DNA of 26,967 bases from a virus. Its lineage: Duplodnaviria > Caudoviricetes. The notes beneath the pieces are model-generated. The model made no database searches. It worked only from the letters and a program-made list of their open reading frames with translations, and had not been told where the DNA came from. Positions 1-8,808 of the stretch are shown here, piece after piece. Every line of letters begins with the position of its first letter. The stretch's first letter is position 1. The position numbers and the translations under genes are program-made. The stretch is taken from IMG/VR virus record IMGVR_UViG_3300032243_001851, positions 1 through 26,967 of that record; one strand, 5' to 3'.

Positions 1-98
1 CCATACCACTTCTCAGCCTGTCTCAGAGCATGATAGGTGTTGTAGGCTTGTACATAGCCCATTACCCTATAACCTTTCATCACAATATAAGTATCCAT
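1..98 (-). CDS. small hypothetical protein, runs off the window edge
   Basis: Hand-translated MDTYIVMKGYRVMGYVQAYNTYHALRQAEKWY...; ATG lies 2 bp beyond the stop of 101..643; not in the ORF track. Confidence 0.6.
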   Translation of the reverse strand, partial: MDTYIVMKGYRVMGYVQAYNTYHALRQAEKWY

Positions 99-100
99 AT

Positions 101-643
101 TCATATCATGTTCCTTTTCACAATCTTTCCACATGAACCATATTTCTCCACAAAACTATCAAAATTATCATAATAGTACATATTCATATTGTCGCAATAA
201 CCATCAAAAATCGGAGTATATCCCTCTTTACCCCGTTTAGCATTATTTTCCTCGGCCCACAAATCGATCATATCAGAATGGGTCCATTTAATCTTTACGC
301 CAGTGGGGGTCAGAAACATTAAAAAGACCACATCGCACAATTCTGGCTTAATCTTTTGAAAATAATAATAAGCACGATTCCCCCTGATCTTGATTGAAGA
401 CATCTTAACTTCAACCTTAATCTTACTATCGACCAGAATATCAAAATCACTACTAGAACCATAATGCTGCACAACAAACCCACTCATCATAAGTTTTTTA
501 ACCAGCATCTTCTCCCCAAACAAACCCCTGTCCGTACTATTTAACAGATTAATACGATAGGACAGCTCATTCTTTTCCACAGAATAAATCTTTTCCTTGA
601 CCAATTCAGCCTCGACCTCTTTGAAATCAGCTATTGTGAACAT
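101..643 (-). CDS. PD-(D/E)XK-type nuclease-like protein
   Basis: G.FGE...FDILVD...VEVK pattern (E..D..ExK) typical of restriction-like nucleases; own promoter at 686-714. Confidence 0.6.
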   Translation of the reverse strand: MFTIADFKEVEAELVKEKIYSVEKNELSYRINLLNSTDRGLFGEKMLVKKLMMSGFVVQHYGSSSDFDILVDSKIKVEVKMSSIKIRGNRAYYYFQKIKPELCDVVFLMFLTPTGVKIKWTHSDMIDLWAEENNAKRGKEGYTPIFDGYCDNMNMYYYDNFDSFVEKYGSCGKIVKRNMI

Positions 644-685
644 TGCTTGGGCCTTTTTTGTTTGGTATCGTTCTTCGATGTTCTT

Positions 686-714
686 AGGATACCATCACTA
701 TCGGCAACTGTCAA
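686..714 (-). promoter_or_regulatory. sigma70-type promoter
   Basis: TTGACA-17-TATCCT; GCCGATA in the spacer. Confidence 0.7.
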
Positions 715-732
715 TAGATTTATAAAATTAAT

Positions 733-814
733 CGTAAACCCATACGGCTTAAGGAGTTACGTCAAATTTGGCCCGCCGCCCGCGTCCTAAGTCCTTTGGT
801 GTCAAAGGGTTAGG
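733..814. repeat. composite intergenic element copy 1 (palindrome pair only)
   Basis: 29-bp palindromes at 733-761 and 786-814, 53 bp start-to-start; no sigma54 box seen. Confidence 0.85.
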
Positions 815-844
815 AGTTGGGCATTCTTTGGGCAGAAGCTGCTA

Positions 845-1249
845 CTAGAACAAGAGGCTAGCAATCTTACTGGTAAACAGCGTACCAGCGAGCAGCGGCT
901 TGCGACAATTAGTCACACGCTCTGCATAGAAGTTACGCACCTTGCCGTCAAACGTGCGACAAGTTACCAGATGATTCGTGCGAATGAAATTGGGATCATT
1001 AGCACGATACCGACTCTTCCTATTCAGCTTGCGAATTTGATCAGCAGTAAGCGTCTGCTTACCGATAACCTTAGCAAGGAACCGCTCATGAGTTCCATGC
1101 AATGGCTGTTCGTAGGTAAAGTTGAAAACCTGACCCTCAACAGCATTAGCAAGGCTAGTTCTAGAACCGCCATAGACAGCATAGAACAGGAAACCAGCAA
1201 CAACAGCAGCAGCAGCAAGAAGACCACCGATCACAAACAAATTATCCAT
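845..1249 (-). CDS. membrane-anchored protein with a WYL/Sm-like C-terminal domain (134 aa)
   Basis: Start moved to ATG 1249 (AAAGGG SD; the track's TTG start is the -35 box). Hydrophobic N-terminus, FNFTY..., and GKVRNFYAERV resembling the WYL R.F..DRI motif. Confidence 0.55.
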   Translation of the reverse strand: MDNLFVIGGLLAAAAVVAGFLFYAVYGGSRTSLANAVEGQVFNFTYEQPLHGTHERFLAKVIGKQTLTADQIRKLNRKSRYRANDPNFIRTNHLVTCRTFDGKVRNFYAERVTNCRKPLLAGTLFTSKIASLLF

Positions 1250-1289
1250 ATCAACCCTTTCGTTAGAAAACAACCGTTCAACTCTCAGT

Positions 1290-1318
1290 ATTCTACAACT
1301 ATTATCGACATTTGTCAA
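1290..1318 (-). promoter_or_regulatory. sigma70-type promoter
   Basis: TTGACA-17-TAGAAT; GTCGATA in the spacer. Confidence 0.8.
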
Positions 1319-1614
1319 GCTTCAACTTGAACAAAATTTTCTTTCCAATACTCTTGCATTTCTGCAAGGTTCACCGCACTATCATTCCATGCCACCATAT
1401 CGGGAGTCTGAAAAGCGATAGCCCTATAAGCATTTGACACTTTTCCAGCATGAAAATCTTCTACGGTATTCACTTCCTTCAAAGTCTCAGTAAATGAACC
1501 ATAGTCATCACAAGAGGCCGCAAGTTCGTGCAGACCTTGATCATTACTAATCCAAAGACAAACATTCCAAGTTTGATAATTAGCATAACCATTATATGTA
1601 GCATCGGGACTCAT
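1315..1614 (-). CDS. conserved phage hypothetical protein (YNG..NY.TW.V.LWI.ND motif)
   Basis: N-terminal motif recalled from uncharacterised phage proteins; start overlaps the upstream stop. Confidence 0.75.
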   Translation of the reverse strand: MSPDATYNGYANYQTWNVCLWISNDQGLHELAASCDDYGSFTETLKEVNTVEDFHAGKVSNAYRAIAFQTPDMVAWNDSAVNLAEMQEYWKENFVQVEA

Positions 1615-1841
1615 TAGAAATCCTCCCCATAGTAATCATGGAAAGCGTCTATATCATCACCGTAATGGCCGTAGTCCTCGTCGGTTCCCCATCCAGCGGA
1701 TGACAACGCACTGTCATGATCGCCATCCATACTATCATCATACGAATCATCAGCATCCTCATAAAAATCATTGTGATCGTCGTAATTCATATCATCCTCC
1801 AGAGCGTTATCGGGATCGAACAGGGGGTCAGGATGGCTCAT
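1614..1841 (-). CDS. very acidic small protein
   Basis: 75 aa, Asp-rich, DGDHDSALSSAGWGTDEDYG motif; AAAGGA SD. Confidence 0.75.
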   Translation of the reverse strand: MSHPDPLFDPDNALEDDMNYDDHNDFYEDADDSYDDSMDGDHDSALSSAGWGTDEDYGHYGDDIDAFHDYYGEDF

Positions 1842-1866
1842 GTTTCTTTTCCTTTCTTATAGAGAC

Positions 1867-1894
1867 AGTCTATCAAAAAAAGCTAGCTTGTCAA
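1867..1894 (-). promoter_or_regulatory. sigma70-type promoter
   Basis: TTGACA-16-TAGACT. Confidence 0.65.
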
Positions 1895-1898
1895 GAGA

Positions 1899-2045
1899 CT
1901 ACCACCCATTCCGGCGGTACTCTTCTCTCAAATCCTCTTCCTCTTCCATCTGGCGACGAGTAACAGCCGGACCTTCGCCGGTCAGGTAAGCGTCACGAGC
2001 AGCATCATAGCCGTCATCCGAATCATCATCATATCGACTCATCAT
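1899..2045 (-). CDS. acidic 48-aa protein
   Basis: Hand-translated MMSRYDDDSDDGYDAARDAYLTGEGPAVTRRQMEEEEDLREEYRRNGW; GAAGGTG SD and own promoter; not in the track. Confidence 0.7.
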   Translation of the reverse strand: MMSRYDDDSDDGYDAARDAYLTGEGPAVTRRQMEEEEDLREEYRRNGW

Positions 2046-2068
2046 TCACCTTCTCTTTCTTTCACTCT

Positions 2069-2097
2069 ATCCTACACTACTATTATCGGCTTGTCAA
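2069..2097 (-). promoter_or_regulatory. sigma70-type promoter
   Basis: TTGACA-17-TAGGAT; GCCGATA in the spacer. Confidence 0.75.
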
Positions 2098-2117
2098 ATG
2101 TCTTTTCTTGAATCTTT

Positions 2118-2291
2118 CTAGATTGAAAGATTGTCCGAATACTCTTCTGGCACAAAATCGTCCACCACACCGACAATATCGGCCCAGTCCCAAAAATCAA
2201 CTTCCACGTTGGGATCGTCAATCGGCTCAACAATCCCCTCGTCCACCATGCCAGCCAGAATCAGATTGATTTCATCAAAATCGTGAAGCAT
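2118..2291 (-). CDS. acidic 57-aa protein
   Basis: Start moved to MLHDFDEIN (AAGGA SD, downstream of promoter 2329-2356). Confidence 0.7.
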   Translation of the reverse strand: MLHDFDEINLILAGMVDEGIVEPIDDPNVEVDFWDWADIVGVVDDFVPEEYSDNLSI

Positions 2292-2328
2292 TGTTGGTTT
2301 CCTTAGTGGTTTCCCTTGTGATGCTGTC

Positions 2329-2356
2329 ATTCTACAGTATTTATCGGCCAATGCAA
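2329..2356 (-). promoter_or_regulatory. sigma70-type promoter
   Basis: TTGCAT-16-TAGAAT; GCCGATA in the spacer. Confidence 0.65.
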
Positions 2357-2389
2357 GAAAAATCTTTGGAATTTTTGAAATATAATGTC

Positions 2390-2521
2390 GTGCCAAATGA
2401 GAAATATTTTTGTGGCACAGCGTTTGCGTCAAAACTTGTCGTAAGTCTATGCTATCAAAGGAGTTACGATTTGCGGGGCGGCAAAAATTTGCCCTAAGTC
2501 GTTATAGGGCAAGGGTTTGCG
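2390..2521. repeat. composite intergenic element copy 2
   Basis: TGGCAC-AGCGT-TTGC at 2413-2427; palindromes at 2440-2468 and 2493-2521. Confidence 0.9.
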
Positions 2522-2522
2522 T

Positions 2523-2597
2523 TCAATTGGCTATCCAAGCAACAACACAACCCGCAATAAAACAAACAGCCCACAGAATATTATCCTGATTATTCAT
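2523..2597 (-). CDS. 24-aa hydrophobic peptide
   Basis: MNNQDNILWAVCFIAGCVVAWIAN; starts 1 bp after the upstream stop; not in the track. Confidence 0.55.
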   Translation of the reverse strand: MNNQDNILWAVCFIAGCVVAWIAN

Positions 2598-2598
2598 T

Positions 2599-2703
2599 TT
2601 ACCTATCCTTATATAATGGAAAAACCAATTCGGCAACCCATACACTACAAACCACACCCACAATCCATCCAATCCCCACACTGATCCAGTCTAAATGATA
2701 CAT
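2599..2703 (-). CDS. 34-aa single-TM peptide
   Basis: MYHLDWISVGIGWIVGVVCSVWVAELVFPLYKDR; AGGAG SD; promoter at 2738-2765; not in the track. Confidence 0.65.
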   Translation of the reverse strand: MYHLDWISVGIGWIVGVVCSVWVAELVFPLYKDR

Positions 2704-2737
2704 CCCTGTATCTCCTATGCTATTTGGTTATATCGTC

Positions 2738-2765
2738 ATTATACTGCATAAACTTAATTATTCAA
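2738..2765 (-). promoter_or_regulatory. sigma70-type promoter
   Basis: TTGAAT-16-TATAAT followed by GACGATATAA. Confidence 0.65.
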
Positions 2766-2854
2766 CCTAACAATATCGAAAGGTTCCCATAGCTCGCTGA
2801 CTATACCCAACTTGCCCAAACCCGAAGGGTTAGCTGAAACACGCAGACTATCTC

Positions 2855-3103
2855 CTATGCGTGATCGTGGCATCTTGTGCAGATTCCGTAATCGCTAATT
2901 GGAGCATCACAGCATGGACTAGTCTCCGTCAATTCTTCACAATTCTTATAATAGAGAGAACGATACTCTCCGTTGTCAAGCTTGACCAACAAGAGCCTAC
3001 CCTTATTCTCGACAATCCTATCCTTCTCCAGCGTACCATGGTACTCGCTACGCTTGCCAGTGGAATCGGTATAGATGGTATTGATTGTGCTTCCGATAAA
3101 CAT
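2855..3103 (-). CDS. small Sm/WYL-like beta protein with a C-terminal Cys cluster
   Basis: Y.D..G...LLVKLDNGEYRSLY, then SPCCDA...GICTRCHDH. Confidence 0.6.
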   Translation of the reverse strand: MFIGSTINTIYTDSTGKRSEYHGTLEKDRIVENKGRLLLVKLDNGEYRSLYYKNCEELTETSPCCDAPISDYGICTRCHDHA

Positions 3104-3145
3104 TTTACTTTCTCTCTTTCTTACTTTCTTTCTTCTGTCCTATTC

Positions 3146-3184
3146 CTTATATCGACATTATACAGGAACCTTCTTGAACGTCAA
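3146..3184 (-). promoter_or_regulatory. sigma70-type promoter with conserved downstream box
   Basis: TTGACG-16-TATAATGTCGATATAAG. Confidence 0.8.
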
Positions 3185-3228
3185 CTAAAAAATTTCCTTG
3201 CAATGTCGTAAGGTTTGCGGCCAAGTTT

Positions 3229-3337
3229 TGGCACGGGCTTTGCGTTTTAATTCGTCATAAGTTGTTATGCCACAAGGAGTTACGTCAAATTTTGCGGCGA
3301 AAATTTTTCCTAAGTCCTTATCCCACAAGGGTTTGCG
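3229..3337. repeat. composite intergenic element copy 3
   Basis: TGGCAC-GGGCT-TTGC at 3229-3243; palindromes at 3256-3284 and 3309-3337. Confidence 0.9.
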
Positions 3338-3502
3338 TCAAGTTTTTTCGCTCCTCCACCTATACAAAAGTTCACGGGCCACAACTCTAATGCGGTTTTT
3401 TACAACCCCCCTTTGTAGGTAGTGCTTTGTAGTTTCAAGCCTAATCTGTTCGGCCCGCAGAATATCTTGAAGTGTACGGGTGTTTACTGTAGCATAATCC
3501 AT
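3338..3502 (-). CDS. basic 54-aa protein
   Basis: Hand-translated MDYATVNTRTLQDILRAEQIRLETTKHYLQRGVVKNRIRVVARELLYRWRSEKT; AAGGA SD; stop abuts the palindrome; not in the track. Confidence 0.65.
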   Translation of the reverse strand: MDYATVNTRTLQDILRAEQIRLETTKHYLQRGVVKNRIRVVARELLYRWRSEKT

Positions 3503-3504
3503 TT

Positions 3505-3837
3505 TTATTCCTTCCAAGCAAACGGGGAAACTTCCTCACCACAAGCCAAGATAGCTTGATACTGTGAAGCCAGAGCCTCGACACGCTCACGCGAACCCGG
3601 CTTGCCAGCCTTGACGATCATAGTATCCTCACCACCGATATAGCGAGGATCGGCCTTTTCCTTCCTTATCTTACCCATATTCTTCAAGGCTTTCCGATTG
3701 AATTTGAGAATCTTCTCGGAACGGATTGGACCATACACCCCATCCGCAAGGGAAGGTTGATGGGGAACAGCAATTCCAAGGAAACACAGTCGGGCTTGAC
3801 GCTTGGCATTTTCGACGATAGGGAACTTAGCTTTCAT
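3505..3837 (-). CDS. hypothetical protein (110 aa)
   Basis: ORF with purine-rich leader and promoter; contains GKPGSRERVEALA. Confidence 0.75.
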   Translation of the reverse strand: MKAKFPIVENAKRQARLCFLGIAVPHQPSLADGVYGPIRSEKILKFNRKALKNMGKIRKEKADPRYIGGEDTMIVKAGKPGSRERVEALASQYQAILACGEEVSPFAWKE

Positions 3838-3862
3838 GGGTATCTCTCTTTCTTATATGGAT

Positions 3863-3890
3863 ATTATACCAAATCTTTTTTGCTTTCCAA
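3863..3890 (-). promoter_or_regulatory. sigma70-type promoter
   Basis: TTGGAA-16-TATAAT. Confidence 0.6.
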
Positions 3891-3910
3891 CCCCCCTTAT
3901 GGGTAGCCTA

Positions 3911-4114
3911 CTAAATTTTCCAGCAGGCGAAAACCAGCGTAAACTGCATATTCGGATACTTTTCCGCAATATACTTTTCAGCCGTAGACTTCCTATTGTC
4001 CGTAGCTCCCACACCTTGAACAATCTTCCCATCCATCACAACATTCCAAATCTTACGCTTCCGAATCTTAGGAAGGCTTGCAAGAAAACCATTAACGCTA
4101 GTAACCTTTTCCAT
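3911..4114 (-). CDS. basic small protein, paralog of 5849..6055
   Basis: 52 of 67 residues identical to 5849..6055 by hand alignment. Confidence 0.85.
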   Translation of the reverse strand: MEKVTSVNGFLASLPKIRKRKIWNVVMDGKIVQGVGATDNRKSTAEKYIAEKYPNMQFTLVFACWKI

Positions 4115-4143
4115 TTTTCTTTCTCTCTTTCTTTCTTCTTCTT

Positions 4144-4183
4144 CTTATATCGACATTATACCAGACGAATCTTTAGAAGTCCA
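4144..4183 (-). promoter_or_regulatory. sigma70-type promoter with conserved downstream box
   Basis: TGGACT-17-TATAATGTCGATATAAG. Confidence 0.7.
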
Positions 4184-4213
4184 GCAAAATCTTTCCTTAC
4201 AATATCGTAAGGT

Positions 4214-4435
4214 TCAGGCAAAATCCTCTTCACCACAGCAATCATCATCCGTACCCCATTCGCCGTCGTCAAGGCCCGGAATGTAGTCGGCCTCATCTTC
4301 CGGAATATCTTCCACCACACTGCACCACTCTTGGCATTCCATACAAATTCCGATTCGGTCCTCACCCTCGCCGGATTCAAAACCACAACCAGCACCACAG
4401 CAATCAGACACCAGATCGTAATTCAGATATTCCAT
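4214..4435 (-). CDS. acidic Cys-rich small protein
   Basis: SDCCGA...GICMECQEWC, then acidic tail with WGTDDD; GAGG SD. Confidence 0.7.
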   Translation of the reverse strand: MEYLNYDLVSDCCGAGCGFESGEGEDRIGICMECQEWCSVVEDIPEDEADYIPGLDDGEWGTDDDCCGEEDFA

Positions 4436-4464
4436 TTTCTTTTCCTCTTTTCTTTCTCTTTCTT

Positions 4465-4503
4465 CTTATATCGACATTATACCATGGATTCTTTAGGATG
4501 CAA
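4465..4503 (-). promoter_or_regulatory. sigma70-type promoter with conserved downstream box
   Basis: TTGCAT-16-TATAATGTCGATATAAG. Confidence 0.75.
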
Positions 4504-4549
4504 GAGAAATCTCTGATAGTTTCCTTGCAATATCGTAAGGTTTCTTAGA

Positions 4550-4691
4550 GCAAATATCGTGCCGAAAAAAGAATATTTGTTTTGGCATGGCAGTTGCGTC
4601 AAAACTTGATGTAAGTCGTTGGTACATAAGCACTTAGGAAAAATTTTGCGGCAAAAATTTGACGTAAGTCCTTTGGTGGTAAGGGTTTACG
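4550..4691. repeat. composite intergenic element copy 4
   Basis: Minus-strand CGGCAC-GATAT-TTGC at 4550-4564; plus-strand TGGCAT-GGCAG-TTGC at 4583-4597; palindromes at 4610-4638 and 4663-4691. Confidence 0.9.
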
Positions 4692-4725
4692 TCTCATTTT
4701 TGTGTATACAAATATTCGCCCCCTC

Positions 4726-4923
4726 TTAGGTGGCATGAATGAACACCCGTTCAGTTACTGTGTGATTGGTCACTGTCACGATCCAATTCTTTCCGCTACC
4801 ATCTTCACGCATGATATTGTTAATGATTCCAACATGAGCGTGTCCCTTAGTATCCAATACGCTACCATACTTGCCAGTACGCATAGCAGAAAAGATAGCA
4901 TCGAGATTGTTTGAAATTTTCAT
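4726..4923 (-). CDS. hypothetical protein (65 aa)
   Basis: ORF with AAGGG SD; contains I.REDGSG..W.VT. Confidence 0.7.
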   Translation of the reverse strand: MKISNNLDAIFSAMRTGKYGSVLDTKGHAHVGIINNIMREDGSGKNWIVTVTNHTVTERVFIHAT

Positions 4924-4924
4924 T

Positions 4925-4993
4925 TTATTTTCCCTTCTTCTGGTTCATTTCCATCACAATTTTCACAGTAATACCGATAGGATTGTTGCTCAT
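4925..4993 (-). CDS. possible 22-aa peptide
   Basis: MSNNPIGITVKIVMEMNQKKGK fills the gap exactly; ATGA overlap with the upstream stop. Confidence 0.4.
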   Translation of the reverse strand: MSNNPIGITVKIVMEMNQKKGK

Positions 4994-5205
4994 GATACAC
5001 CCATCCAAGAGGCATTTTCCACGCAATAATCATAAAACATATCATTCAACACTTCAACATAATTCTTTTCGGTCAAACGCCTACGATTTAGGATAGCCTC
5101 ACACTCTGCAAAATACTTGCCAGAAGCAACCTCATAAACAATCGTACAGGCATGGGATTCATCTCCCCAAATCTGAGCCTTAGTATCAATAAACTTTTTC
5201 ATCAT
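4990..5205 (-). CDS. hypothetical protein (71 aa)
   Basis: GAGGA SD; promoter at 5236-5263. Confidence 0.75.
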   Translation of the reverse strand: MMKKFIDTKAQIWGDESHACTIVYEVASGKYFAECEAILNRRRLTEKNYVEVLNDMFYDYCVENASWMGVS

Positions 5206-5235
5206 AAAATCCTCTTTCTCTCTTTCTTTCTTCCT

Positions 5236-5263
5236 ATTATACCTATTAATTTTTGCTTGTCAA
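5236..5263 (-). promoter_or_regulatory. sigma70-type promoter
   Basis: TTGACA-16-TATAAT, both boxes perfect. Confidence 0.85.
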
Positions 5264-5268
5264 TACCC

Positions 5269-5496
5269 TTACGGAAGATACATATCGCTCACAACGTTAC
5301 CGTTATCGTCGATCACAATCTCCCCACCATCATCGCAAAACCCGATTTCCTCGTCGATACTGATGGCATTGTTGAGAGATCTAACATGGTTGAGAAGATC
5401 ACCAGCGAAAAGAACCTCTCCAACCAGAGAGGGCATATCGTTGTTGTTCAGGAAGTTGGTCAGTTCAGCAACAGTGTTCAGCGTGATCATTTTCAT
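5269..5496 (-). CDS. acidic hypothetical protein (75 aa)
   Basis: AAGGA SD; acidic C-terminal half. Confidence 0.75.
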   Translation of the reverse strand: MKMITLNTVAELTNFLNNNDMPSLVGEVLFAGDLLNHVRSLNNAISIDEEIGFCDDGGEIVIDDNGNVVSDMYLP

Positions 5497-5523
5497 TTCC
5501 TTTTCTTTATCGTTCCCTTTTCT

Positions 5524-5562
5524 CTTATATCGACATTATACAGAGTATTCTTTAGGTTGCAA
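5524..5562 (-). promoter_or_regulatory. sigma70-type promoter with conserved downstream box
   Basis: TTGCAA-16-TATAATGTCGATATAAG. Confidence 0.75.
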
Positions 5563-5595
5563 GCGAAATTTTTGGAATTTCTCGAATATAATTTC

Positions 5596-5753
5596 ATGCC
5601 AAAAAGAAAAATATTTTATGGCACAACATTTGCTTTGTGCTAAGATAGGAGATAAAAACCAAAATACTGATCGTAAGTCGTTATGCCATAAGTACTTACG
5701 TCAAATTTTCGGGCAAAAATTCGTCGTAACTCCTTTGGCAGTAAGGGTTTACG
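5596..5753. repeat. composite intergenic element copy 5
   Basis: TGGCAC-AACAT-TTGC at 5619-5633; palindromes at 5672-5700 and 5725-5753. Confidence 0.9.
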
Positions 5754-5848
5754 TCGAGTTTTTGTACAGTAGTATACGGATTTACAGTGGTCGAAACTTT
5801 CCACTGTTTCTCAATCCCTGAACAAGAGTATCATAGTCGTTCGTGGTA

Positions 5849-6055
5849 TTAAATTTTCCAACCCTTAAACACAAGCGTAAACTCCTGATTGGGATACTTG
5901 CTGGCGATATACGCCTCAGCGGTTTCTTTTCGGTTATCGGTAGCACCGACACCCTGCACTACGTTTCCACCAATCACAACATTCCAGATTTTACGCTTCC
6001 GAATCTTGGGAAGCGAACCAATCAGACCATTCACACTCATAACCTTTTCCATCAT
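5849..6055 (-). CDS. basic small protein, paralog of 3911..4114
   Basis: Shares SLPKIRKRKIWNVV and VQGVGATDNRK with 3911..4114. Confidence 0.85.
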   Translation of the reverse strand: MMEKVMSVNGLIGSLPKIRKRKIWNVVIGGNVVQGVGATDNRKETAEAYIASKYPNQEFTLVFKGWKI

Positions 6056-6079
6056 CCACTCTCTCTTTCTTATGTCTTA

Positions 6080-6107
6080 ATTATACCATACTTATCGTCC
6101 ATTGCAA
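6080..6107 (-). promoter_or_regulatory. sigma70-type promoter
   Basis: TTGCAA-16-TATAAT; GACGATA in the spacer. Confidence 0.75.
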
Positions 6108-6140
6108 GCGAAAAATAAAATATTTTTGAAAAATAATTTT

Positions 6141-6270
6141 GTGCCAAATAAAAAAAATCTTCGGCATACCACTTGCGTCAAAACTTGCCATAAGTCCTTA
6201 CCCCATAAAGACTTATGAAAAATTTTCGGGGGCTGGTCTATCCTAAGTTGTTGTTATCATTAGGTTTAGG
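6141..6270. repeat. composite intergenic element copy 6
   Basis: CGGCAT-ACCAC-TTGC at 6162-6176; palindromes at 6189-6217 and 6242-6270. Confidence 0.9.
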
Positions 6271-6373
6271 GGGTTTTTTTGTTTTGCTTATAAGATCAGT
6301 AGAATTTGTGAAAATCCCCCGGTGGTCCAAAAACAATAAGCATCCCATATATAATTGGCCAGTTTAATAGCCA

Positions 6374-7618
6374 CTATTTATTAATCTTTCCACTCCATAC
6401 CACATTATTCCCCACTTTCACCACTACGCTATTTTCCCCCTTATGAAACCAAGTTGATGCTAGCCCCACATTAAATCCATGATAACTTGACCCTAACTGA
6501 TATTTAAGATCAGGTCTGTAATTATTAGCTATCGCCAACCTTATTACTTTATCATTTATTAAAATCTTTACCACTACTGGCTTGCTTCCACTAGAGCTAT
6601 CAAATGCCCATCCCTTGATCTGCTTCAAAGATAAAACTTCTACATTTCCCACCGGCACACTAACAACTGGTTGAGCCGCCACAGTTTGGGGAACAGATGG
6701 AGCACTTGTGCTTATAACAGGAGATTGAGACACTTTAAAAACTAAACTGTTATTTAAGATTCCCCCAGTTCCCACCCTGTCTATTAGCCCCCCGTTCTGC
6801 TCAACAGAGCTAAAGATATAACTTTTTACAGAGCTAACATTCCACGATGGATTTTTATCTCTCAAATAAGCCACAGCATCAGATACTATTGGAGTTGAAA
6901 AACTAGTTCCAGAGAAATATCCAAAAGTATTATTTAAAGACGATGAATATACGCTATTGCCAAAAGTTCCCAAATCCACACTATTTTTTCCATAATTGGA
7001 ATATCCTGCTAAAGTTCCATCACTATTAACAGAGGCCACACTAATAATATTAGAGCAATCATAAGAACTTGGATATCTTGGAGTCACATCATTATTAGAA
7101 GAACTATTACCAGCAGCCGCCACAAAAACTATATCGTTAGCTGCTGCCCTATTAATACTATCATATAATAAACTAGAATATCCCGTAGTTCCGCCCCAAC
7201 TAGCATTAATAACCCCCACATTAACATGATAATCTTTCTTCATCATATTAGCATAATCAATTGCCCTTATAGCATCCCCCGTAAATCCCACCCCCTGACT
7301 ATTCTGAAATTTTAAAATCATTATACTATCAACATTATTAGCAGATGCTAACCCCGCCACAGCAGTCCCATGACCATATCCATCCCCCACATTATTGTTA
7401 TTATCTGCAAAATTCCACCCATGAATATCATCTATATATCCATTGTGATCATTATCAATATTATCCCCTGGAATTTCCCCAGGATTAGTCCACAAATGAG
7501 AGCTAATATATGAACTATTAATATCAGCCCCACTATCAACCACCGCCACCACAGTACTAGAAACTGATAATACTCTTTTAGATTCTAAGCTTTCAAAGCT
7601 CAAAATGCTTTTCTGCAT
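6374..7618 (-). CDS. subtilisin-family (S8) serine protease with planctomycete extracellular N-terminal signature
   Basis: Catalytic motifs VAVVDSG, HGTAVAG, AAAGN, SGTSFSTP; N-terminal LSFESLESKRVLS; start moved to ATG 7618 (AAAGGA SD). Confidence 0.9.
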   Translation of the reverse strand: MQKSILSFESLESKRVLSVSSTVVAVVDSGADINSSYISSHLWTNPGEIPGDNIDNDHNGYIDDIHGWNFADNNNNVGDGYGHGTAVAGLASANNVDSIMILKFQNSQGVGFTGDAIRAIDYANMMKKDYHVNVGVINASWGGTTGYSSLLYDSINRAAANDIVFVAAAGNSSSNNDVTPRYPSSYDCSNIISVASVNSDGTLAGYSNYGKNSVDLGTFGNSVYSSSLNNTFGYFSGTSFSTPIVSDAVAYLRDKNPSWNVSSVKSYIFSSVEQNGGLIDRVGTGGILNNSLVFKVSQSPVISTSAPSVPQTVAAQPVVSVPVGNVEVLSLKQIKGWAFDSSSGSKPVVVKILINDKVIRLAIANNYRPDLKYQLGSSYHGFNVGLASTWFHKGENSVVVKVGNNVVWSGKINK

Positions 7619-7701
7619 GATGGAGTCCTTTCGTGTTGAGAGTCCAGTCACAACATATAGTGGTTTATATACGAAGAAACCACAAGATCAAGAGTTTTTA
7701 T

Positions 7702-7758: not shown

Positions 7759-7974
7759 TTATGTATTATCACTATTGCTTAAACTAGTTTTCTTTCGTCG
7801 TCCACGAGGCTTAACAATACCTAGCTTTCTTCGTTGACGCCTAATCATACTAGTAGTAACAGCTTCTGAGGTCATTTCGCTTAGCTTTTTAGCTAGCTCT
7901 TCATCACTAAAACCGGCTAAATTGTCCTTAATATAACTTAGTTCAGCATCATTCCATCTTTTATAAGTGGCCAT
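7759..7974 (-). CDS. small HTH-like DNA-binding protein
   Basis: W...E..YI....SDEELAKKL....T..MIRRQRRKLGI pattern; start moved to MATYKRW (AAGGA SD). Confidence 0.7.
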   Translation of the reverse strand: MATYKRWNDAELSYIKDNLAGFSDEELAKKLSEMTSEAVTTSMIRRQRRKLGIVKPRGRRKKTSLSNSDNT

Positions 7975-7988
7975 AAAATACTTCCTTT

Positions 7989-8016
7989 TTGACAAAAAGT
8001 GTACAAATCATAGTAT
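7989..8016 (+). promoter_or_regulatory. sigma70-type promoter for the rightward operon
   Basis: TTGACA-16-TAGTAT in the divergent intergenic gap. Confidence 0.55.
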
Positions 8017-8054: not shown

Positions 8055-8216
8055 ATGGATATTGACCACATTACCCCATCGGTGCTACACGTTACCGCTA
8101 AAGAAAACTTAAATATAGAACAAGATTTATTGGCCGTTCAAAACAAAAGCATATCTCAACTAGTTGAAGAACAAGCTAATGAAGAAAAAGAAGAATCTCA
8201 GTCCCAAGAAGGTTGA
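8055..8216 (+). CDS. 53-aa acidic protein
   Basis: MDIDHITPSVLHVTAKENLNIEQDLL...EEKEESQSQEG; GAGG SD; not in the track. Confidence 0.55.
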   Translation: MDIDHITPSVLHVTAKENLNIEQDLLAVQNKSISQLVEEQANEEKEESQSQEG

Positions 8217-8808
8217 TGAGCAGGAATTTCTTAATATTGTTAATATAATAGCCAAAAAATTAGCTTATAAATTTAAATTTGGCTATCATGATTTTGACGA
8301 TATGAAACAGCAAATTAGTATTTTTGCTTTAGAAGGACTTAAAAATTACGACCATAAAAGACCACTAGAAAACTTTTTGTGGACCCACGTTCGTAATCGC
8401 TTATTCAACTATAAAAGGGATAATTACCAAAGACCAGACAAACCATGTTTAACTTGTCCACTATATGATGCTAAGTGCAAAAAGAGTATTAGTGGATGTT
8501 TAGAATATTCTAATAAAAACGATTGTGAGCTATATTCATCTTGGACAGAAAGAAATTTAACCAAAAAAAATCTTATGCATCTTACCACCATAGATGAAAT
8601 TAAAGATTATTCTAATACTTTTACTAGTGACGATAATTCTATACTCAACAATATATCATCCAAAGAAATTTTTAATTTAATAGAAGAACATTTAATAGGA
8701 GATGAAAGAGTAACCTACTTAAAAGTCAAGTCGGGCAGCAAAGTTAGCAAAGCTGATATGAGTAAACTCACCATTAAACTCAAAGAAATTATGAAAAATC
8801 ATGGCTAA
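8179..8808 (+). CDS. phage sigma-factor-like protein (sigma70 region 2) with Cys-rich insert
   Basis: DDMKQQISIFALEGLKNYD..RPLENFLWTHVRNRLFNYKR matches the sigma region 2 pattern; start uncertain (8164 or 8179). Confidence 0.7.
   Translation: MKKKKNLSPKKVDEQEFLNIVNIIAKKLAYKFKFGYHDFDDMKQQISIFALEGLKNYDHKRPLENFLWTHVRNRLFNYKRDNYQRPDKPCLTCPLYDAKCKKSISGCLEYSNKNDCELYSSWTERNLTKKNLMHLTTIDEIKDYSNTFTSDDNSILNNISSKEIFNLIEEHLIGDERVTYLKVKSGSKVSKADMSKLTIKLKEIMKNHG

Follow-up and report, generated by a model that had tools for sequence, protein, structure and literature searches.

Sigma-54-type -24/-12 boxes that face away from the small genes of a tailed phage may serve as docking sites, where a mostly silent host sigma-54 holoenzyme would tune the adjacent sigma-70 promoter. 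We analysed the 26,967-nucleotide IMG/VR record IMGVR_UViG_3300032243_001851 (Duplodnaviria; Caudoviricetes), hereafter the window, together with its relatives. The window is a fragment of a phage genome whose plus strand carries a terminase gene, a weak major-capsid match and tail-fibre genes. The minus strand of positions 1-6300 holds small genes of unknown function, which are likely early genes to judge by their size and by the approximately 13 leftward host-type (sigma-70-type) promoters found within 6 kb. The docking reading, which rests on comparison of sequences, is put at slightly under an even chance and is weighed below against four others.

A sequence-only reading had listed five 15-mers on the plus strand, all of which were recovered there (Table 1). 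The pattern YGGCAY-N5-TTGC occurs five times on this strand of positions 1-6300, whereas 1000 Markov-2 simulations gave 0.026 on average and never more than 1. A looser search with one mismatch returned 10 matches for 5.97 expected, which is not significant alone, and the signal rests on the strict pattern. Boxes 1, 4 and 5 each have, 15-17 bp away, an inverted half that consists of the -24 element only. The five central bases had been described as variable. In relatives these positions are constrained: a set of 168 dereplicated boxes has a purine at the first in 99%, A at the fourth in 77% and T at the fifth in 88%.

Relatives comprised 119 loci from viral contigs of up to 238 kb, found with two protein queries, the first of which contributed the best 80 of 207 stretches. 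Counts of anchors, P pairs, cassettes and long loci in relatives are dereplicated, and searches of complete relatives cover five complete genomes. The sequence-only reading had held that loss of the GG-N10-GC spacing in homologous elements would point to another TGGCA-binding factor; the spacing is kept in relatives as in all five boxes of the window. Of 859 YGGCAY anchors facing away from the small gene, 168 are followed by TTGC at spacer 5, and no other spacer between 1 and 11 accounts for more than 9; anchors facing towards the gene have TTGC at spacer 5 in 78 of 760. Two positions left free by the search fit the sigma-54 consensus quoted in PMC12316311, with a purine at position 7 in 99% of phage boxes and 73-81% of host boxes, and A or T after TTGC in 87% and 81-86%, respectively. 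With the spacing held and the same motif preceding chaperone genes in the likely host phylum, sigma-54 probably reads the boxes, as the earlier reading proposed. We do not class them as sigma-54 promoters because, despite the sigma-54 core, they fail the tests for an upstream activator site, an upstream IHF site and a downstream gene.

The earlier reading missed that the boxes are an optional module of a larger repeated promoter cassette. Read in the direction of the small gene, the cassette consists of palindrome P2, a 53-bp step, palindrome P1, an optional slot, A-tracts, a sigma-70-type promoter and the gene. The P-P period is 53 bp in 91 of 105 pairs. A strict box lies in the slot between P pair and promoter in 78 of 196 cassettes (65 directed away from the gene, 29 towards it, 16 with both) and on the far side in five. 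Among promoters adjoining boxes (positions 686-6107 and relatives), 106 of 130 have a 16-bp spacer, not 17, and many share a short motif just past the -10 (repeat family D8). A P pair, or P with the promoter cassette, in several cases with a box, was also seen on contigs binned into bacterial or archaeal assemblies; nine such contigs look phage-like, some of them from other phage groups.

The nearest box directed away from the gene is in helical phase with the -35 of the sigma-70-type promoter (R=0.61 at 10.5 bp; 92 values from 38 genome clusters). None of 5000 jittered sets reached this value, and only one gap is shorter than 31 bp. Two abutting polymerases need about this 31-33 bp minimum gap. 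The distance from box to P1 is unphased (R=0.08). Two operators occupy the same slot: operator R, an 18-bp palindrome mostly 9-11 or 21-22 bp from the -35 (16 genome clusters), and operator S, 20 bp from it (21 clusters). A 78-aa helix-turn-helix (HTH) protein encoded in the window is a candidate reader of either. Operator R was also considered as a host site, and it is not enriched there (7 of 121 planctomycete genomes, 8 control genomes).

Palindrome P resembles a site for an IHF-type protein. It is two-fold symmetric, TT-N7-AA, with TTR 4 bp outside on both arms. The kinks would presumably fall on its TT and AA, as in the H' structure. In IHF the kinks are 9 bp apart and a TTR flank is present (10.1101/382655). 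P also occurs where IHF works, namely upstream of sigma-54 promoters, where IHF acts (PMC7962754), and at tRNA integration sites, with at least 12 bacterial loci in which it adjoins the end of a tRNA or tmRNA gene (read by eye). One P site, likewise read by eye, lies beside DnaA-box-like sequences, as expected if it serves as an IHF site in an origin of replication. Some bacterial copies (three loci) have the full WATCAR core. HU/IHF-family proteins of four of five planctomycete genomes carry the IHF-beta R-x-E-x-R triad (Arg42/Glu44/Arg46; residues from 10.1101/2024.06.24.600358), and a homodimer of such an IHF-beta-like protein would read TTR on both sides of P. Binding of P by a host IHF-beta-like homodimer is thus considered likely. 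The arms of P show no covariation in the core, with N4 pairing of 0.35 against 0.42 in shuffles for P1 and 0.42 against 0.44 for P2; the outer flank of P2 is the sole part in which pairing exceeded shuffles. A hairpin in RNA or single-stranded DNA was ruled out, as the arms do not covary. A recombinase crossover site is unlikely, since the 7-bp cores vary among copies within one genome.

A sister lineage carries a different pair, Q-Q, in place of P-P, with the two copies 29 bp apart in 37 of 50 cases; P and Q seldom share a locus. In hosts, Q lies 56-116 bp upstream of a box, and downstream in one of 251 Planctomycetota genomes. Q is likely a heat-shock activator site, because Q-box loci precede chaperone genes. 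The genes behind 27 of 30 such Planctomycetota loci encode DnaK (13), GroEL (9), Hsp20 (4) and ClpB (1), and the order there is activator site Q, IHF-like site, sigma-54 box, chaperone gene. Eight further loci with Q, IHF-like site and box were noted, and in another Q follows a gene for a receiver-AAA-HTH activator. One planctomycete genome has three copies of a repeated element made up of Q-Q, a P-like site, a box and a downstream Q.

The host of these phages is probably a planctomycete, on several grounds. RpoN, detected as PF04552, is encoded by 198 of 201 Planctomycetota genomes. When bacterial genomes were scanned for P, at least 124 loci emerged, and among the matches listed 55 have Planctomycetota titles by hand count, a few of these being contigs that resemble phage DNA but were binned as bacterial. 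The arrangement with Q upstream of a box was found in 39 of 251 genomes of Planctomycetota, 5 of 101 Gemmatimonadota, 1 of 101 Verrucomicrobiota and 0 of 101 Bacteroidota, with phyla named from the titles of the centre loci. The subtilase of the window, a probable planctomycete-derived insertion at the head of the small-gene region by its sequence, has as its two best named homologues Pirellulales proteins that share its N-terminal motif; many cyanobacterial matches follow. PF07595 did not serve as a host marker. Gemmatimonadota would be a weaker alternative on the same counts, and Bacteroidota are an unlikely host, given the absence of the Q-box pattern from all 101 genomes and a primary sigma factor that reads another box, TAnnTTTG (PMC9723704, which treats the sigma-54 regulon of Flavobacterium SM4).

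Hosts and phages place the same parts in opposite order. P lies upstream of a box in 46 of 201 planctomycete genomes and downstream in 5 (one each in the control), whereas in phage loci it lies downstream in 52 and upstream in 14. Across all viral contigs the two layouts occur in about 840 and about 700 stretches, mostly outside the cassette, and a P pair is present in 40 of 132 and 14 of 124 of their loci, respectively. In the window, P starts 14 bp past the -12 in four boxes and 40 bp past it in one, and an IHF-like site upstream of the -24 was found for the inverted box at 4550-4564 only. An IHF-type protein covers approximately 35 bp of DNA. With P1 14 bp past the -12 in four of the five copies, a bound protein would therefore cover the predicted +1. 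For 42 of 71 boxes directed away from the gene, the centre of P1 falls 22-28 bp beyond the -12, and in the Q lineage Q, found downstream of such boxes, starts 2-7 bp past the -12 in 37 of 48.

From these arrangements we propose that the host sigma-54 RNA polymerase would park on a box, oriented back-to-back with the predicted sigma-70 early promoter and phased with it along the helix. An IHF-beta-like protein over the +1, together with the lack of an upstream activator site, may keep this complex closed, and the docked enzyme would act in cis on the neighbouring promoter, whose output it would likely raise. A boost is slightly favoured over a brake, and this is the weakest step. In the dmp system, IHF and sigma-54 polymerase increase the output of a divergent sigma-70 promoter roughly 4-fold even when the cognate activator is absent (PMC5175336). 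A more far-reaching version, which we consider rather unlikely, is that a family of planctomycete phages reversed the three parts of a host heat-shock promoter, namely the sigma-54 box, the IHF-like site and the activator site, into a locked, phased holoenzyme dock placed behind the earliest promoters; early output would then be tied to protein stress through polymerase contact, with no sigma-54 transcript, and P would be the site of an undescribed homodimeric IHF-beta-like protein.

Several observations weigh against the docking reading. The box is dispensable, as 118 of 196 cassettes lack a strict one, and in 29 of 196 the box has a host-like layout and could be a real promoter. Box 3 of the window is out of phase, at 79 bp; the phased operators R and S in the same slot could produce the phasing passively, and related phages do not count as independent. 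The dmp effect is phase-independent, has IHF between the promoters and is due to transcription-driven supercoiling (PMC5175336), so it offers no precedent for help from a silent complex, and where bound sigma-54 is known to act in cis, it mostly represses promoters that overlap its site (PMC4551910). The phage consensus of P falls short of the full WATCAR core, keeping only the final AA and a weak A-Y before it. The best NCBIfam match was IHF beta for five of six planctomycete proteins, all below the curated cut-off. The host is inferred rather than known. Finally, among 28 inverted halves situated 15-18 bp upstream, 16 have no TTGC, and the half-site of Q is also TGGCA, which together leave room for another reader.

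The reader of the boxes would have to come from the host or be an unrecognised phage protein, since none of the five complete relatives has an RpoN domain. The sequence-only reading suggested a search for a phage RpoN homolog or GAFTGA-type activator, and neither was found in complete relatives: weak PF00158 matches occur in four of the five, and the one that was read is RuvB-like by eye and has no GAFTGA. No activator was detected at E 0.001 in five Q-lineage records, one of them complete. Neither HU/IHF nor GroES was found in the five complete relatives. The 78-aa HTH protein was considered as a stand-alone RpoN domain and set aside, with no Pfam match at E 10 and sigma-54 chains ranking 34-38 at E of about 2; its nearest folds are small terminase and GcrA HTH, none under E 0.001. 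That the boxes are promoters for the phage sigma-like protein (8164-8808) is also unlikely, since they are concentrated in the small-gene region rather than in front of structural genes.

The sequence-only reading offered working antisense promoters as one explanation, fired by a host activator, which in the Q lineage would be the heat-shock one. Their transcripts would act in one of two ways, damping the first early genes through convergent interference or stimulating the back-to-back promoter through negative supercoiling. The consensus is full and the -12 intact, in the dmp system a sigma-54 promoter is shown to be topologically coupled to a divergent sigma-70 promoter (PMC5175336), phiKMV-like phages have a conserved antisense promoter and phage YuA a sigma-54-like one (PMC10914365). 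In the Q lineage, 22 of 51 cassettes have boxes directed away from the gene beside predicted activator sites, and FleQ and FlrC are activators that work from downstream sites. Against this, P1 or Q1 overlaps the predicted +1 in most such boxes, the layout is rare in hosts, and a search of the window for Q within one mismatch found none. Phasing is also kept by the phage, although dmp coupling requires none. The earlier statement that no credible plus-strand gene follows the boxes needs qualification, since ORFs of 50-91 aa begin within 200 nt past four of them, those at 4702 and 5843 overlapping minus-strand genes. The short plus-strand ORFs form 99 similar pairs, a similarity probably due to shared cassette DNA and shadow frames. 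For long ORFs the statement stood in relatives, with an ATG ORF of at least 85 aa after 14 of 138 phage boxes compared to 26 of 30 host boxes. A non-coding RNA could still start from the boxes, although the Rfam scan of the window gave no match. Antisense promoters are thus unlikely. Less likely again is that another dimeric protein of host or phage, for example a Q-binding activator or the 78-aa HTH protein, reads TGGCA halves as operators and that the resemblance to sigma-54 sites is incidental. An inverted TGGCA half lies 15-18 bp from four of the five boxes in the window, three of these halves being without a -12, Q is made of the same half-site, and a conserved small HTH protein is encoded at the head of the region. 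That TTGC stands at exactly spacer 5 whichever way the box faces (168 and 78 sites) is not explained in this way, the identical motif is a chaperone-gene promoter in hosts, and an inverted half lies within 60 bp of just 40 of 167 boxes.

Two further suggestions of the sequence-only reading lost ground. As a decoy array, boxes and P or Q pairs would titrate sigma-54 holoenzyme, IHF-like protein and the heat-shock activator during replication and so blunt the host stress response. Phage boxes are nearer to consensus than host promoters, relatives have tandem boxes and 15-27 P sites per complete genome, and host sigma-54 drives chaperone and ClpB genes. Strict boxes number just 2-7 per complete genome, however, and the phage probably depends on host chaperones, as the lack of a detected GroES suggests. 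A decoy requires neither orientation bias nor phase to the -35, and a pure decoy leaves the phasing to the sigma-70 promoter unexplained; we regard this explanation as improbable. A roadblock or insulator, in which a closed complex and a bent P pair would halt read-through from upstream early promoters in place of terminators, is the least probable. The crowded leftward promoters, terminator-like sites that are not clearly enriched (9 against 5.9 in shuffles) and P arms that show no hairpin covariation speak for it, whereas in E. coli bound intragenic sigma-54 caused no roadblock repression (PMC4591121). Furthermore, 52 of 63 boxes directed away from the gene lie within 5 kb of the sigma-like gene, where least read-through is expected, and P is spread evenly over 9 kb (20 long loci).

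Table 1 Positions of boxes, palindrome pairs, promoters, operators and genes in the window
Feature	Position	Strand	Remarks
Sigma-54-type -24/-12 box 1	2413..2427	+	Directed away from gene 2118-2291; -35 at 2356 is 56 bp off
Sigma-54-type box 2	3229..3243	+	-35 at 3184 is 44 bp off
Sigma-54-type box 3	4583..4597	+	-35 at 4503 is 79 bp off; back-to-back with complete inverted box
Sigma-54-type box 4	5619..5633	+	-35 at 5562 is 56 bp off; palindrome pair 40 bp on
Sigma-54-type box 5	6162..6176	+	-35 at 6107 is 54 bp off
Complete sigma-54-type box 6, towards early gene	4550..4564	-	Host-like layout, palindromes upstream
Inverted -24 half only	2390..2395	-	No TTGC at -12
Inverted -24 half only	5596..5601	-	
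Inverted -24 half only	6141..6146	-	
P pair without sigma-54 box	735..812 (cores 735-759, 788-812)	.	Upstream of promoter at 714
P pair	2442..2519 (2442-2466, 2495-2519)	.	53-bp period; 14 bp past box 1
P pair	3258..3335 (3258-3282, 3311-3335)	.	14 bp past box 2
P pair	4612..4689 (4612-4636, 4665-4689)	.	14 bp past box 3
P pair	5674..5751 (5674-5698, 5727-5751)	.	40 bp past box 4
P pair	6191..6268 (6191-6215 and degenerate partner 6244-6268)	.	14 bp past box 5
Predicted sigma-70-type promoter	2329..2356	-	Back-to-back with box 1; consensus match only
Predicted sigma-70-type promoter	3157..3184	-	Back-to-back with box 2; 11/12 consensus
Predicted sigma-70-type promoter	4476..4503	-	Back-to-back with box 3
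Predicted sigma-70-type promoter	5535..5562	-	Back-to-back with box 4
Predicted sigma-70-type promoter	6080..6107	-	Back-to-back with box 5
Operator R, 18-bp palindrome beside -35	3196..3213	.	More copies at 2766-2783, 4195-4212, 4523-4540
S8 subtilase	6374..7651	-	PF00082 match; host clue; head of small-gene region
Conserved 78-aa three-helix HTH protein	7759..7995	-	Candidate phage regulator; not RpoN domain
Sigma-70 region-2-like (sigma-like) gene	8164-8808		Divergent from HTH gene 7759-7995

Other features of the window were noted alongside. A conserved non-coding block at 6268-6372 heads the small-gene region and contains a G-run, a T-run, a GGTGGT motif and a short hairpin. It is present in 7 of the 15 long relatives listed, and three viral contigs start within about 30 nt of it; the block is a possible genome end, packaging site or origin. 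Two small minus-strand genes, 3911-4114 and 5849-6055, are paralogous (72% identity over 232 nt), a sign that the cassette was duplicated. No match to the window was found in cultured phage DNA or in an Rfam scan.

The cassettes share traits with several known systems. Planctomycete chaperone sigma-54 promoters (consensus in PMC12316311) have the same core motif, spacing and IHF-like site, and in the sister lineage the same palindrome Q. In the phage, by contrast, the IHF-like site or Q is on the +1 side, no credible downstream gene follows, and the boxes are tandem or back-to-back and tied to a sigma-70 promoter. PeSL cassettes of T4-type phages also place repeated strong sigma-70-type promoters between small variable genes (PMC2839356); they have a stem-loop terminator, whereas the palindromes here appear to behave as double-stranded protein sites, and PeSL as described there have no sigma-54 or IHF sites. 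The present phage is not T4-like by its capsid matches. The dmp Po/Pr pair of Pseudomonas putida likewise combines non-overlapping divergent sigma-54 and sigma-70 promoters with IHF, and the sigma-54 side affects the sigma-70 side (PMC5175336). There the starts are 264 bp apart with IHF and activator sites between them, a real operon is transcribed and phase is irrelevant, whereas in the phage the gaps are mostly 31-70 bp and phased, with IHF-like sites outside the promoter pair. In phage Mu, an upstream host IHF site similarly supports the early promoter Pe (PMC3820752), although P differs in that it is a symmetric site, comes in pairs with a 53-bp period, recurs some 10-15 times in each genome and is probably bound by an IHF-beta-like homodimer. 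Silent or repressive sigma-54 sites in E. coli also bind holoenzyme without transcription, some facing away from genes (PMC4591121, PMC4551910); those sites are scattered and repress mainly by overlap, whereas the phage sites are arrayed, conserved across the phage group and clear of the -35 and -10.

A literature search, with most subscription papers out of reach, returned no account of such box arrays in phages and nothing on the host of this phage group or on palindrome P. Phage use of sigma-54 in the literature found consisted of the single sigma-54-like promoter of YuA (PMC10914365), and phage Q19 has a predicted sigma-54-like protein (PMC7693777). The IHF-like assignment of P and the comparison of host and phage geometry are new here.

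Silent sigma-54 sites occur widely, most of them without an explanation, and there is hardly any record of phages using sigma-54. A group of phages in which selection preserves such sites, at a fixed geometry to a neighbouring promoter, would be a compact system for studying what a parked sigma-54 enzyme does in cis. The specificity of IHF-beta in lineages without IHF-alpha is an open question that has been raised for Acidobacteria (10.1101/2024.06.24.600358). The comparison also points to the phylum in which these uncultured phages likely have their host, and predicts a symmetric site that an IHF-beta-like protein would recognise.

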